Source: Bacteroidales bacterium (lineage in GTDB: Bacteria > Bacteroidota > Bacteroidia > Bacteroidales > P3). From it: 57,127 nucleotides of DNA. The position numbers and the translations under genes were made by a program. Below the pieces are notes generated by a model. That model was not told where the DNA came from. It searched no databases and saw only the letters and a list, made by a program, of their open reading frames with translations. The stretch covers positions 1 through 57,127 of the forward strand of contig JAGDCN010000107.1 in the NCBI GenBank assembly GCA_017958525.1. The letters run 5' to 3'. Of this stretch, positions 1 to 5,392 are shown in pieces (the first letter of the stretch is position 1; the number at the start of each line of letters is the position of its first letter).

Positions 1-681
1 AGCAATATCGTTCATCATTTCGCCAACAGTTTTGTTGCCATTGAATCGATAGCCCCAAGCCAAAGCTGTGTCAGGCCAGTTGACAGCAAGAACGACCTGA
101 TTCTGGCCTTCGCCAACCCAGTAAAGAATATCGCTGGCAGCAATAGTGGCTTCTTCAGGAATGTCAGAACCGTTTGGGTTGCTGGCAGCGGTTGCCGATG
201 TCAACGCGAACATACAACTGCTGCTTATCTCCATTAAATCTCCATTGCTCACAGGTTGATTTCCGTAAGCATTGAGTGCCCACGACCCATTCAGATAGTA
301 ACACCATCCGTTTGTTGAGCTCCCTGACACAAGAGAACCGTCATTGTATGAAACATATTGCATCAGGGAACTGGAATAAGAATAACTTAAGCGACTGTCG
401 TGAGTGGCAATCGAATCAATAAGGCCGAGAGCCGTTGTGCTGCCATTCCAACGAACACCCCAAGCCAAAGCAAAATTGCCATTAGGATTGTCATCCCATC
501 CGACAACAACGACAGCGGAATTACTACCGCTTCCAACCCAAAATTGAACATCAGAAGCCTGGAAAACCACACTCTTTGCTCGAACATTTTTCTTTGTATG
601 TCCTGCATTGTTGCCCTCTTGGGCAGACACGATAGTAGTCATCATCAGACTCAACGATAAAATTAATAGTTTTTTTAGCAT
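1..681 (-). CDS. Secreted tandem-repeat protein, N-terminal 227 codons only (runs off the window start); candidate corrinoid-related surface protein
   Basis: Absent from the ORF track because the window edge truncates it. My translation from ATG 681-679 gives MLKKLLILSLSLMMTTIVSAQEGNN (signal peptide). The frame stays open for all 227 codons to position 1. Two copies of a module are visible: D[VI]x[FY]WVGxGxN..V..V.W.D....ALAWG.R.NG. It lies directly downstream of a cobalamin riboswitch on the same strand. Confidence 0.8.
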   Translation of the reverse strand, partial: MLKKLLILSLSLMMTTIVSAQEGNNAGHTKKNVRAKSVVFQASDVQFWVGSGSNSAVVVVGWDDNPNGNFALAWGVRWNGSTTALGLIDSIATHDSRLSYSYSSSLMQYVSYNDGSLVSGSSTNGWCYYLNGSWALNAYGNQPVSNGDLMEISSSCMFALTSATAASNPNGSDIPEEATIAASDILYWVGEGQNQVVLAVNWPDTALAWGYRFNGNKTVGEMMNDIA

Positions 682-767
682 AATCGATACTATTTAAAAT
701 GTTAATATACAATTGTCCAAACTCAGTATCGGTGGCCAACAAAGGAAAAAAGGAAACGACAATCCGG

Positions 768-1008
768 AAAAAACGCGGCAATACACACCGCAAACTCCAG
801 TTTACCGGACACTTTTTCCTCGAAAGCGAACCGAATTTTCAGATTTGGCAGGTCTTCTGACTCGTTCTATGCCCATCAGCCTTCCCATATATCTATGACG
901 ATATACAGTGGCTATTCCATTGATTGGCATACTACTGAACTCACAGCAGCGGGACTGTCCAGGATTCTCACCTGGTTCCCTTTTGACACCCTTTCGGGCG
1001 ACCAAATC
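768..1008 (-). promoter_or_regulatory. Cobalamin (B12) riboswitch: aptamer 842-1008 plus putative terminator-type expression platform 768-791
   Basis: Minus-strand RNA reads GAUUUGG (P1 5' arm), AAAGGGAACCAGGUGAGAAUCCUGGACAGUCCCGCUGCUGUGAG, AGCCACUGUAUAU, UGGGAAGGCUGAUGG, then GAGUCAGAAGACCUGCCAAAUC (B12 box plus P1 3' arm). The conserved core, the GCCACUG element and the B12 box are all present. A GCGGU-N7-GCCGC hairpin with a U6 run follows. Confidence 0.9.
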
Positions 1009-1013
1009 AATTG

Positions 1014-1021
1014 CAAAAATA
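1014..1021 (-). promoter_or_regulatory. -7 promoter box (TATTTTTG) for the riboswitch transcript
   Basis: Exact match to the Bacteroidetes sigma-A -7 consensus TAnnTTTG, 6 nt upstream of the riboswitch P1 stem. Confidence 0.6.
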
Positions 1022-2789: not shown

Positions 2790-3257
2790 TCAACTTCTCC
2801 TCCAAAAACGCGAAGTGATATCCTGCATCTTACCATTGGTTATCTTGTACATACGCTGGTTCGTGTGCCTGCTGCGCAACGAACCCAAATGTGCCAGATA
2901 TGGTCCTAATTTGATATAGTCGAAATTGTTGATATTCAATGATGGAGAGAGCTGCGAACGTCCACTATACCAGGCTGTGCGCAGTTTGGTATAGCGTTGA
3001 CGCAGGTTATGCATAAGTCTGTCAACTTCGGCGGCACAGGCATCTCCCCCCATCACGGCAACGCAGGTAATCTGGTTACGATAAGGCTCAATTAGCTTGT
3101 CCAAAGCCTCGTCAGTCAGCGGCTCTCCGACATCATTCCACAGATACTTCGAATGGCACCCAGGACAATGACACGGACATCCAGTGATGTTGATAGCCAA
3201 CGAAACCTCGTCTGGAATTTCTTGAAAGACAATATCGCTATTTAGGTATTTAAGCAC
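2790..3257 (-). CDS. nrdG: Anaerobic ribonucleoside-triphosphate reductase activating protein (radical SAM)
   Basis: 155 aa with the CPCHCPGCHS Cys cluster, immediately downstream of nrdD. The start codon is GTG. Confidence 0.9.
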   Translation of the reverse strand: MLKYLNSDIVFQEIPDEVSLAINITGCPCHCPGCHSKYLWNDVGEPLTDEALDKLIEPYRNQITCVAVMGGDACAAEVDRLMHNLRQRYTKLRTAWYSGRSQLSPSLNINNFDYIKLGPYLAHLGSLRSRHTNQRMYKITNGKMQDITSRFWRRS

Positions 3258-3280: not shown

Positions 3281-5392
3281 TCAATTTTCAACCATCTGAT
3301 TAGGTGTGGCATAGTGACGACGAGCAGCCTCTTCTTGACGTGGCATCGAGAAATTGCTTACACGTTTTAGGTAGCCGATAATGCGTGTCATATAGTCAAC
3401 ATTTGTAGAATGGCAGTGCGGACATTCCTTCAGGTAGCGTTTGTCTATATGGCCGCAGTCGTTGCAAATAGTATTGGGAATATTGAATGTAAAGTAGTTA
3501 CAACCCTCTTTTGCAGCCACGTGCAACAATTGCAAATACTGTTCCTGCGAGAGATGTTCCTCAAGGTTACAGTGAAGAGCACTGCCACCGGTCAGATGCT
3601 CAATATATGGCGTACCGTGCAAACGGAACTTTTCGAGAATAGAAATTGATTGGTCTTCAACAATATAAAAATAGCTATTATAGCAGTCGCGTGGAACAAA
3701 ATAACCATCCTCGCGGTCCCATTTAGCGTGTTTAACACCCACGTTTTCAGCTGGAATCATCTCGCAATTGAACATCACCTCCTTTGTGCGGTATTCTTTA
3801 TTTTTCTTCTCAACAAGTCCCAATACGGTTTGTACGAAGTTTCTGTAGTTTGGATTATCGTTGATTGTCAAGCCCATAAATTCAGCAGCCTCAACCAGTC
3901 CATTAACACCAATTGTCAGATATTGACGCGCGATATTTATATATCCGGCATCGAAGAGCGGCAACATACCGTGGGATGCCAGATCTTTAAGATTTTCGTT
4001 GTAAGCCAGCTGCACTTTGTGGCAAAGATCGATAATGTCGGTCAGAAACTCCTTGTAATCCATCTTGTTATTGATGGCATACTGTATGCTGCGGTTCAGA
4101 TTGATGGTCAGCACGCTCTTCGAGCCTGTCGATACGCCACCGGCACCGAGTGTATAGCTAAATCCATTGTCTGTAATCTCATTGCGCAGTCGGCAGCAGC
4201 TGCTCAGTGAGTCAGCATTGTCGCTCATATAGGTGAAGAAACTATGACCTTCAGCATACATCTCTGCAGTGAACCCGGCCATATCGGGATCTACCATTTC
4301 TCCATCTTTGCTCAGCAGCGCCATAGTTTCTACAGGGAAAGTAAGCACTGCCTTGGTCCGCTCCTTGTTGAACCAGCGCATAAAACGTTTCTGTAACCAC
4401 TTCAAGCTCTCCCAATCTGGTGCCGAACCATCGGGGAAGCGGAACTCTCCGAAAAGACTCTCAAAGTACGGTTTGTCGTAATATGCTATATTCCAGAATA
4501 CGGCCTGATAGTTGCGCGCACCTGTGGGTTGGTTAAGGGTATAAACAATTTGCTCAAAACAGTCGGTGATAATCTTGTCCAGTGTGCGCTTGCGCAGACT
4601 CAAATCAACCACCTCGTCAGCACGCTTATAATAGTCCTGACCGTAGTCTTTACCAATGAAATAGTTAAGATACATCAAAAATTCAGGCGTTGCGCAAGCA
4701 CCACTCAACATACTGCTTACCATAAAGACCATATTCACAAAACCTCCACAAAAGGACTTGAGATTGGTCGGTGCCGTAGAATTGCCACCAATTGACGCCG
4801 TGCCACTTAACAGCCAAGGATACATTGTGATACTAGCACAATAATTTGCCAACGATGTTTCATCATTCTTATAGATAAAATGATGTGTTAATAGATCAAT
4901 ATATCTGTCAGCCAACTCTTTACCATACATTGTCTTTATTCTATCTGTTAACAGACGACGGTTTAAACGAATAAAGTTTGACTTTGGCAGCTCACCTATA
5001 AGCGTTGCAATATTCTTGTGCTCCACATTGGCGTTTGCGTCATATTTTGAGCCTGTTGCAGCGTTCGCAGCTTCACAGTATTCTGACAAAAACTTCATTT
5101 TTTCCATTGTCTCACGGTCTTCCGTGTGACGCTGGCGATACAGCATAAAACTCTTGGCTACATCATAGAACTCCTCTTTCATCAATGCCACCTCAACCTG
5201 ATTCTGGATCTCTTCGACGGTAATACCGTTGTGGATATCAAGATGCGAAAGAATTTTCGACAGAGCACCCAAATCAACAGGACGATCTATGGAATTGAAT
5301 GCCTTTATGATGGCATTCATTATTTTGTCAAGCGAAAAACGATCGGCACTACCATCGCGTTTTGTGATTGTCAGAATATTACTGTTTTCCAT
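3281..5392 (-). CDS. nrdD: Anaerobic ribonucleoside-triphosphate reductase (class III)
   Basis: 703 aa. N-terminal ATP-cone (ITKRDGSADRFSLDKIMNAI). C-terminal CNDCGH..CPHC zinc site and glycyl-radical motif TRIIGYLKRV. Confidence 0.95.
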   Translation of the reverse strand: MENSNILTITKRDGSADRFSLDKIMNAIIKAFNSIDRPVDLGALSKILSHLDIHNGITVEEIQNQVEVALMKEEFYDVAKSFMLYRQRHTEDRETMEKMKFLSEYCEAANAATGSKYDANANVEHKNIATLIGELPKSNFIRLNRRLLTDRIKTMYGKELADRYIDLLTHHFIYKNDETSLANYCASITMYPWLLSGTASIGGNSTAPTNLKSFCGGFVNMVFMVSSMLSGACATPEFLMYLNYFIGKDYGQDYYKRADEVVDLSLRKRTLDKIITDCFEQIVYTLNQPTGARNYQAVFWNIAYYDKPYFESLFGEFRFPDGSAPDWESLKWLQKRFMRWFNKERTKAVLTFPVETMALLSKDGEMVDPDMAGFTAEMYAEGHSFFTYMSDNADSLSSCCRLRNEITDNGFSYTLGAGGVSTGSKSVLTINLNRSIQYAINNKMDYKEFLTDIIDLCHKVQLAYNENLKDLASHGMLPLFDAGYINIARQYLTIGVNGLVEAAEFMGLTINDNPNYRNFVQTVLGLVEKKNKEYRTKEVMFNCEMIPAENVGVKHAKWDREDGYFVPRDCYNSYFYIVEDQSISILEKFRLHGTPYIEHLTGGSALHCNLEEHLSQEQYLQLLHVAAKEGCNYFTFNIPNTICNDCGHIDKRYLKECPHCHSTNVDYMTRIIGYLKRVSNFSMPRQEEAARRHYATPNQMVEN

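Follow-up and report, generated by a model that had tools for sequence, protein, structure and literature searches.

A cobalamin riboswitch on the minus strand of contig JAGDCN010000107.1 (Bacteroidales bacterium, assembly GCA_017958525.1) precedes a gene that probably encodes a B12-repressed, multivalent corrinoid-capture protein exported by the type IX secretion system (T9SS). The stretch of DNA analysed, called the window here, comprises positions 1 to 57,127 of this contig, and the gene is cut by its left end. On this reading, the window carries the start of a single-gene unit that B12 represses. The product would leave via Sec (signal peptidase I) and cross the outer membrane by the T9SS through a C-terminal sorting domain, a route proposed for the window protein because it is homologous to relatives that are 73% identical; it would end attached to the cell surface or released. 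In Porphyromonas and Flavobacterium, type-A T9SS cargo is surface-anchored or released. The body of the protein would be a string of modules resembling the beta-domain of transcobalamin, probably four here, each of which would bind corrinoid. Together the modules would form a multivalent extracellular B12 trap feeding BtuG/BtuB importers that are encoded elsewhere or, in some genomes, adjacently. Corrinoid binding by the modules is suggested by context, namely the riboswitch linkage of the family and its BtuG and BtuB neighbours; the hand-off to BtuG/BtuB is a proposal.

Riboswitch and regulated gene

In cmscan, the minus strand between 830 and 1021 scores 110 bits for the cobalamin riboswitch family RF00174, whose gathering score is 31.5 (E 1e-26). 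The match spans positions 1-189 of the 189 in the model, i.e. it is untruncated, and across the 57-kb window cmscan gave no other Rfam match. A reading of the letters without database searches (the sequence-only reading) had described a complete minus-strand B12 aptamer with P1 stem, core, GCCACTG element and B12 box. The covariance model bears it out, and every element is present; the core is GGGAACCAGGTGAGAATCCTGG (GGGAAC...GGTG). A home-built covariance model, R1, scores the window aptamer at 205.8 bits, a value obtained by construction because the window is among the four training sequences of R1. The features of the aptamer and of the regulated gene are:

830-1021, minus strand: complete cobalamin riboswitch aptamer (RF00174, cmscan)
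1008-1002 and 848-842, minus strand: P1 strands, 5' GATTTGG and 3' CCAAATC (sequence)
862-847, minus strand: B12 box AGTCAGAAGACCTGCC (sequence)
1021-1014, minus strand: Bacteroidetes-type -7 promoter box TATTTTTG (TAnnTTTG), 5 nt before P1 (sequence)
1-681, minus strand: 5' part of the regulated gene, 227 codons, ATG at 681-679, cut by the contig end (translation)
622-681, minus strand: signal peptide MLKKLLILSLSLMMTTIVSA, likely cleavage before Q21 (inspection)
193-564, minus strand: module 1, aa 40-163 (module profile, E 9.6e-43)
1-147, minus strand: N-terminal part of module 2, aa 179-227 (module profile, E 2.6e-25)

The -7 box had been seen earlier with a spacing of 6 nt; its presence is confirmed, but the spacing is 5 nt. 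Of 86 related riboswitches, 80 have the pattern TAnnTTTG next to them, whereas it occurs in 1.5% of random 65-nt windows; it is also conserved in alignment A2. The riboswitch is therefore taken to have its own promoter.

The end of the aptamer lies 149 nt from the ATG at 681, on the same strand. From there the reading frame runs to position 1 without a stop codon, giving 227 aa up to the contig end, in agreement with the truncated, signal-peptide-bearing first regulated gene expected at 1-681. The N-terminus, MLKKLLILSLSLMMTTIVSA followed by QEG, is of the signal-peptidase-I type (A-x-A before Q, judged by inspection only), and relatives show the same pattern. Neither the window protein nor any of the inspected relatives has a lipobox cysteine, within its signal peptide or behind it. 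At least two copies of a ~130-aa module had been claimed. The repeat is real, but 1.4 copies are visible, one in full and about 50 aa of a second. The window fragment forms a cluster that consists of this contig alone, and no contig from JGI metagenomes was more than 75% identical to it. The C-terminus was unreachable, and the 73%-identical syntenic relatives were therefore used instead.

Riboswitch linkage recurs throughout the family. In all of the first four loci examined, RF00174 scored 109-111 bits just upstream of the gene. The riboswitches of these loci then served to build a covariance model and an nhmmer profile for a linkage scan. A same-strand cobalamin riboswitch was found upstream in 72 of 79 loci from GTDB, in most cases with its end 100-200 nt ahead of the start codon, and metagenome loci outside the GTDB set show the same linkage. 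Classical cobalamin riboswitch regulons contain btuB, cob/cbi, metE and nrdDG. The window resembles them in its canonical aptamer and in the expected repression of an acquisition-type gene. It differs in that the first, and probably sole, regulated gene encodes neither a transporter nor an enzyme.

Predicted fold of the module

Module 1 of the window was modelled with AlphaFold using an alignment of 34 modules (pLDDT 91.5, pTM 0.89). The predicted order is a hairpin, a helix (50-60), a second hairpin (64-79) and three further strands. In a Foldseek search of the PDB with this single-module model, the top 19 hits were 3U7Z or the beta-domains of transcobalamin, intrinsic factor and haptocorrin (probability 0.98-1.0), and all hits after rank 19 had a probability below 0.6. 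The top hits include the isolated human beta-domain in its apo (5NO0) and cyanocobalamin-bound (5NP4) states, with a TM-score of 0.58 on the target. A structural comparison with the transcobalamin beta-domain, envisaged in the sequence-only reading, thus led to the DUF4430/transcobalamin family. A single-module model was needed because multi-domain noise dominated the search with a full-length model of 398 aa, where the modules were obscured and 3U7Z reached merely rank 37. The models are all-beta with one helix per module. The pTM of the full-length model is 0.47, and therefore no confident packing between modules can be derived.

Because the Foldseek alignments cover ~105-115 columns, the whole ~125-aa module is regarded as one beta-grasp domain, in which the N-terminal half would correspond to the first hairpin and the helix. 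The DUF4430 resemblance previously noticed in the second half of the module is therefore real, but it is weak on the window and the domain is the whole module. The beta-hairpin predicted after the helix is present in the window module. A post-helix hairpin of this kind is the defining feature of the transcobalamin-like SLBB clade, and in transcobalamin it touches the base of B12 (PMC1796856). The models are consistent with a remote homology to transcobalamin-beta/DUF4430 that is backed by the fold, rather than with close membership.

SLBB/beta-grasp domains bind many ligands, polysaccharide included (PMC1796856), and the gene could in principle encode a B12-regulated protein that binds something other than corrinoids. 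Such a protein would be a surface adhesin or other-ligand binder needed under B12 scarcity, for example for attachment to neighbouring B12 producers or to material of plant or host origin, with modules that bind glycans or proteins. This is quite unlikely. The structural matches are specific to the transcobalamin-like clade and DUF4430 and do not extend to SLBB domains of the Wza, ComEA or Nqo1 type, and Pfam SLBB matches neither the window fragment nor any of 37 relatives. The giant paralogues of the family do carry additional fn3 domains, which are typical of adhesins, most family operons have no transporter, and the alpha-domain of transcobalamin is absent. However, the family co-occurs with BtuG homologues, in one locus with both btuB and btuG, and the isolated human beta-domain can hold cyanocobalamin (5NP4), so a module without the alpha-domain is a plausible binder. 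The adhesin interpretation can also draw on the control of non-transporter genes by cobalamin riboswitches, as in the six loci where nrdDG follows a riboswitch-controlled family gene.

Export, architectures and distribution

A search of 5.8 billion proteins returned 86 homologues of the corrinoid-capture candidate, with full-length members typically of ~390-400 aa. A C-terminal T9SS sorting domain (PF18962/TIGR04183) is present in 31 of the 37 relatives scanned. TIGR04183 is the sole name that NCBIfam gives to the relatives, and no NCBIfam model matches the window fragment. In the 941-aa protein of locus L053 the domain is detected with E 1.2e-11 (PF18962) and E 8.3e-11 (TIGR04183). The modelled C-terminal domain of a full-length relative superposes on mirolase (8QB1, TM 0.70) and on NucA (8GLK, TM 0.79), and a full-length profile searched against PDB sequences matched T9SS sorting domains alone. 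On this indirect evidence, the surface protein of an undescribed type that had been proposed belongs to an uncharacterised extracellular multi-module family with a transcobalamin-beta/DUF4430-like fold; the sorting domain of its relatives had not been foreseen. Neighbouring genes in related loci often bear PF18962. Within the 57-kb window, a search with the family-derived sorting-domain profile, the only one used there, detected neither a T9SS component nor a further sorting-domain protein.

A scan of GTDB with one genome per species gave 383 related coding stretches, and 79 loci were kept. All 79 come from metagenome-assembled genomes (MAGs) of uncultured Bacteroidales/Bacteroidetes, one of them titled merely 'bacterium P3', and the isolate names of most refer to ruminants (cattle, goat, sheep, yak, buffalo, deer, reindeer). 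When the module profile was searched against 1.84 billion representative proteins, 1269 matched at E <= 1e-3 and 168 at E <= 1e-30. These matches contain 1-7 modules in lengths of 180-2300 aa. With M for a module and C for the sorting domain, the architectures are MMC (~400 aa), MMMC (540-800 aa) and MMMMC (700-940 aa). Giant members reach 2300 aa, and fn3 domains were found in both giants checked.

Several loci contain tandem family paralogues, each with its own cobalamin riboswitch (L042:1725-10181, L048:470-9200, L031, L024, L015). In L042 and L048 a ~440-aa form with two modules and a sorting domain adjoins a giant of 2000-2300 aa with fn3 domains. In L005:1627-4023 (protein P0011) the family gene looks split: a 243-aa product with an out-of-family tail is followed by more open reading frames encoding modules, which suggests a frameshift or an assembly error. 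Distant kin of the N-terminal half of the module occur in two ~325-aa proteins with dockerin (P0085, P0086), and the tail of P0085 is PEP-CTERM-like. Use of the module thus extends beyond Bacteroidales, in combination with other anchors.

Nearest relatives

The nearest relatives of the window protein, from L053, L061, L056 and L051, are 64-73% identical to it over 227 aa, and the closest full-length ones are 941 aa long and 73% identical. A divergent SBP_bac_5 neighbour is shared by L053, L056 and L051 at 77-81% identity. The gene encodes 941-1048 aa in L053, L056, L051, L085, L087, L088 and L089, and 777 aa with three modules in L114. In all eight loci a convergent ~970-aa gene comes directly after the family gene (GH3 and beta-lactamase Pfam domains in L053, the only one checked); the family gene is therefore monocistronic in this clade. 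An earlier expectation, that the window gene leads a B12-acquisition locus continuing beyond the window, finds no support in the organisation of these eight closest-relative loci. In the 941-aa form, a signal peptide is followed by four modules, an unassigned ~230-aa domain and the T9SS sorting domain. The ~230-aa domain (L053:7491-10316, residues ~640-870) has no sequence match in Pfam or the PDB.

Monocistronic genes without an adjacent transporter would also suit a corrinoid binder that is chiefly a competitive sequestrant or an extracellular reservoir, rather than an obligatory step of uptake. B12 would then be denied to competitors or the host, or stored. The architectures of 1-7 modules suggest capacity over relay, and BtuJ1 of Bacteroides has been proposed to be an extracellular reservoir (bioRxiv 10.1101/2025.07.01.662609). 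Repression by intracellular B12, however, fits acquisition under need, and BtuG/BtuB operons include the gene in some genomes. The sequestrant or reservoir role is a variant of the capture protein proposed above, from which nothing here separates it, and as the chief role it is very unlikely.

Proposed expression platform of the leader

The leader between the aptamer and the start codon appears to be a riboswitch expression platform acting on translation initiation, with support from covariation. Its elements in the window are:

829-835, minus strand: segment (a), UUCGGUU, proposed anti-sequestrator strand (minimum free energy fold and pairing in relatives)
812-827, minus strand: conserved leader element GCUUUCGAGGAAAAAG, adjoining segment (a) on its 3' side (comparison of leaders)
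792-774 and 773-768, minus strand: terminator-like hairpin UGCGGUG-UGUAU-UGCCGCG and U6 (consensus terminator scan)
724-733, minus strand: segment (b), ACCGAUACUG, switching strand; its 5' part pairs with (a), its 3' part GAUACUG with (c)
685-692, minus strand: segment (c), UAGUAUCG, sequestered strand, 3-11 nt 5' of the AUG (covariation)

Related leaders share these segments in the forms AUCGGU for (a), 7 nt past the P1 3' strand; RCCGAUA(C/U)UG for (b), ~95 nt beyond (a); and CA(G/A)UAUC for (c), 3-10 nt 5' of the AUG. The 16-nt element GCUUUCGAGGAAAAAG is invariant in the five closest loci and is found in most related spacers; it may make a tertiary contact, belong to the platform or serve as a site for a protein or the ribosome. 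Segments (b) and (c) can form a 7-bp helix, GAUA(C/U)UG:CA(G/A)UAUC. In 29 distinct leaders, picked by the motif on each side independently and without using complementarity, the paired share of cells is 88.8%, and it falls to 15-50% if the partner strand is shifted. The variable pair is C-G in 16 of these leaders, U-A in 13 and unpaired in none. The start-proximal 18 nt are complementary to their own spacer above 95% of shuffles in 36 of 72 leaders.

The competing (a):(b) pairing, UCGGX:YCCGA, is kept in 23 of 27 distinct related spacers, the remaining 4 having U/U. At the variable position of (a), C faces G in 4 of 4 cases, while U faces G or A in 19 and U in 4. Two further spacers have matched 1-nt insertions on both the (a) and the (b) sides. 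In the minimum free energy fold of the window leader, the P1 3' strand together with (a) pairs with (b) and the following GAGUUUGG, a sequence that resembles the P1 5' strand and thus acts as its mimic.

From these pairings the following switch can be proposed. Transcription would begin just past the Bacteroidetes -7 box, and the leader would fold as a riboswitch of the adenosylcobalamin type. At low levels of intracellular corrinoid, UCGGU and the P1 3' strand next to it would pair with the downstream ACCGAU...GAGUUUGG; the A-rich stretch 5' of the AUG would stay open and the protein would be made. When corrinoid is bound, P1 would close, and the freed GAUACUG would pair with UAGUAUC 3-10 nt 5' of the AUG, blocking initiation. 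In the window leader the hairpin with U6 may contribute some termination. Both the direction of the switch and any share of termination are what we infer.

The hairpin itself is present at 792-768, as the sequence-only reading had noted, but it is not conserved among relatives. It could be argued that the riboswitch works mainly through termination at this site and not by masking of the start codon, an alternative that concerns the mechanism only and is unlikely. The site was picked up by the terminator scan, and weaker versions of the hairpin and U-run occur in L053 and L061. The L051 and L056 leaders lack both, and a strict terminator scan gave a site in just 2 of 74 related leaders, whereas the start-proximal helix is conserved and covaries. 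Termination was consequently dropped as a general mechanism, though termination and start masking are not mutually exclusive.

Genomic neighbourhood of the family

A DUF5074 protein encoded next to some family genes is a BtuG homologue, matching BtuG1 (8BLW chain B, E 7.8e-86) and BtuG2 with cyanocobalamin (8BMX, E 4.6e-28), and it is co-operonic with the family gene in 10 loci. The MAG 'bacterium P3' (L030:4641-9617) has a riboswitch followed by a TonB-dependent receptor of 702 aa, a BtuG-like protein of 353 aa and a family protein of 538 aa with three modules. This is the sole locus seen with the full riboswitch-btuB-btuG-family series. In L002-L004 a BtuF-like Peripla_BP_2 protein is added. 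Downstream open reading frames of ~696 aa had been candidates for BtuB, but they proved to be NrdD, UvrB or GH2-like and were rejected, the TonB-dependent receptor occurring in L030 only.

In six loci the family gene is directly followed by nrdD and nrdG: L046 (10873-13426, confirmed with Pfam) and L052, L055, L067, L074 and L077 (by size of the open reading frames). No second riboswitch was detected before nrdDG in these six. B12-independent isozymes are classical targets of cobalamin riboswitches. In the window, nrdD (3281-5392) and nrdG (2790-3257) lie on the minus strand ~2 kb upstream of the riboswitch gene, on the same strand and with no riboswitch of their own; an SBP_bac_5 gene on the opposite strand sits between them and the riboswitch gene. 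The proximity of nrdDG and the family gene may represent a recurrent B12-limitation neighbourhood or plain synteny.

A 326-331-aa protein with a T9SS sorting domain is very often encoded next after the family gene (L001:4393-5385, L002:11191-12168 and many others), and the stop and start codons of the two genes frequently overlap. Beyond the sorting domain it has no sequence match in Pfam or the PDB. Its possible roles are those of a partner or of a second binder. A ~290-330-aa coiled-coil protein recurs just past the family operon, before housekeeping genes unrelated to it, namely uvrB and asparaginase (L001:5551-6441, L021:10432-11304, L011:10845-11834 and others). It matches no specific Pfam family and may not belong to the operon.

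In two loci (L096:4488-11108, L099:1682-11111) the family protein has 1035 aa, its gene is preceded by genes for 685-aa and 328-aa proteins, and no riboswitch was found within 8 kb upstream. The gene may be under other regulation there, or the riboswitch may be divergent.

Evidence against a corrinoid-capture role

Several observations weigh against the prediction of a B12-repressed, T9SS-exported corrinoid-capture protein. The window fragment matches PF14478 (aa 99-148) below threshold, with E 0.013 and 16.4 bits against a required 23.8. The hmmscan check named in the sequence-only reading therefore gave a sub-threshold DUF4430 match, and the BtuG and BtuH families were unmatched. P0014 (21.9 bits) and the L053 protein (22.2 bits) likewise remain below the cut-off. 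Since 20 of the 37 relatives scanned do match PF14478 at E <= 0.01 (best 4.2e-10) in spite of such sub-threshold scores, the family is regarded as a divergent PF14478 relative that the model partly covers. The module profile gave insignificant results against PDB sequences (3U7Z, E 0.13), and in the Foldseek search the E-values are modest (2e-3 to 7e-2) with TM-scores of 0.45-0.59. Transcobalamin requires its alpha-domain for tight B12 binding; the window fragment and 37 relatives gave no match to PF01122 and show no toroidal alpha-domain.

Other points concern export and regulation. The window reading frame lacks its own C-terminus, and the T9SS domain and the number of modules are therefore unseen there. 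A transporter is absent from most family operons. Seven of the 79 GTDB loci have no riboswitch; three of them (L033, L059, L080) have less than 800 nt of upstream sequence. The covariation of the sequestrator helix consists of one variable pair and may reflect just two clades, and about half of the related leaders carry other platform sequences (37 of 74 without both motifs).

Comparison with known systems

Bacterial transcobalamin-like SLBB proteins were predicted to be extracellular B12 scavengers in 2007, and the hosts listed for this clade were Gram-positive bacteria, planctomycetes and some archaea, in which the proteins were associated with anchoring to the cell wall and with transporters of the ECF/Cbi type (Burroughs et al. 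2007, PMC1796856). The family described here shares with that clade and with PF14478 (3U7Z, Ruminococcus gnavus) the predicted fold with its post-helix hairpin and the extracellular location. It also shares the W.Y..NG....GD signature of PF14478 and the transcobalamin beta-domain. It differs from the clade in an extra N-terminal signature (WVG.G.N ... AWG.R), in a T9SS sorting domain in place of an LPXTG or cell-wall anchor, and in its host phylum, Bacteroidota, which was unlisted for the clade in the 2007 survey (PMC1796856). Unlike transcobalamin, intrinsic factor and haptocorrin, it has no alpha/alpha-toroid, and its modules are repeated 1-7 times.

BtuG, BtuH, BtuJ and BtuK are lipoproteins with, respectively, a propeller (DUF5074), a novel globular fold, a DUF4465 jelly-roll, and PKD and propeller folds; T9SS export is used by none of them. 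Like these four, the family members would be accessory proteins of Bacteroidota that bind corrinoids outside the cell and are controlled by cobalamin riboswitches. The window fragment and the family profiles show no Pfam or PDB sequence match to these four proteins; the PDB set searched holds BtuG and BtuK1 structures, as the matches of the neighbouring gene show. The predicted fold is unrelated and arranged in tandem repeats, and the protein would be exported with a signal-peptidase-I signal and the T9SS, not with a lipobox and a surface export signal. The hosts are also different: uncultured Bacteroidales of ruminants in this family, human-gut Bacteroides in the case of BtuG, BtuH, BtuJ and BtuK. 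With type-A T9SS cargo (gingipains, mirolase, NucA) the relatives share the C-terminal PF18962/TIGR04183 domain and a Sec signal followed by Gln, whereas the passengers here are without enzymatic signature and vitamin-binding-like.

A full-text search, with subscription-only papers outside its scope, found neither a description of the family nor a link between T9SS cargo and cobamide capture. The comparison suggests that the architecture, the export route and the host group are new, while riboswitch-controlled extracellular B12 binders and a B12-binding fold were known. It is possible, and proposed tentatively, that the protein is a 'corrinophore' made of beta-domain homologues only, which would be the first T9SS cargo dedicated to vitamin acquisition and would pass B12 to BtuG/BtuB. 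Its modules could perhaps pair as a clamp that replaces the alpha-domain, and would form a trap on or around rumen Bacteroidales cells with a high capacity and possibly with selectivity for the lower ligand of the corrinoid.

Biological significance

Competition for B12 is a major fitness factor among gut Bacteroidota, and the surface binders BtuG, BtuH, BtuJ and BtuK uncovered since 2018, a growing set, have all been studied in human-gut Bacteroides. If the corrinoid-capture reading is true, a structurally unrelated class of B12 binders would be added to them, homologous to the beta-domain of the mammalian carriers, exported by the T9SS and built as a repeat of variable length. The 2007 prediction of bacterial transcobalamin-like B12 scavenging would be extended to a new phylum. 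The ~125-aa module is small, well-folding and easily tested, and L030 is a good model locus for experiments. The class would be concentrated in the rumen, an environment in which the B12 supply of the host is determined by the microbial production of corrinoids and by the formation of analogues. Given how widespread the family is in genomes from the ruminant gut, a corrinophore of this kind could, if real, have a measurable influence on the amount of true B12, rather than of its analogues, that reaches other microbes and the animal.

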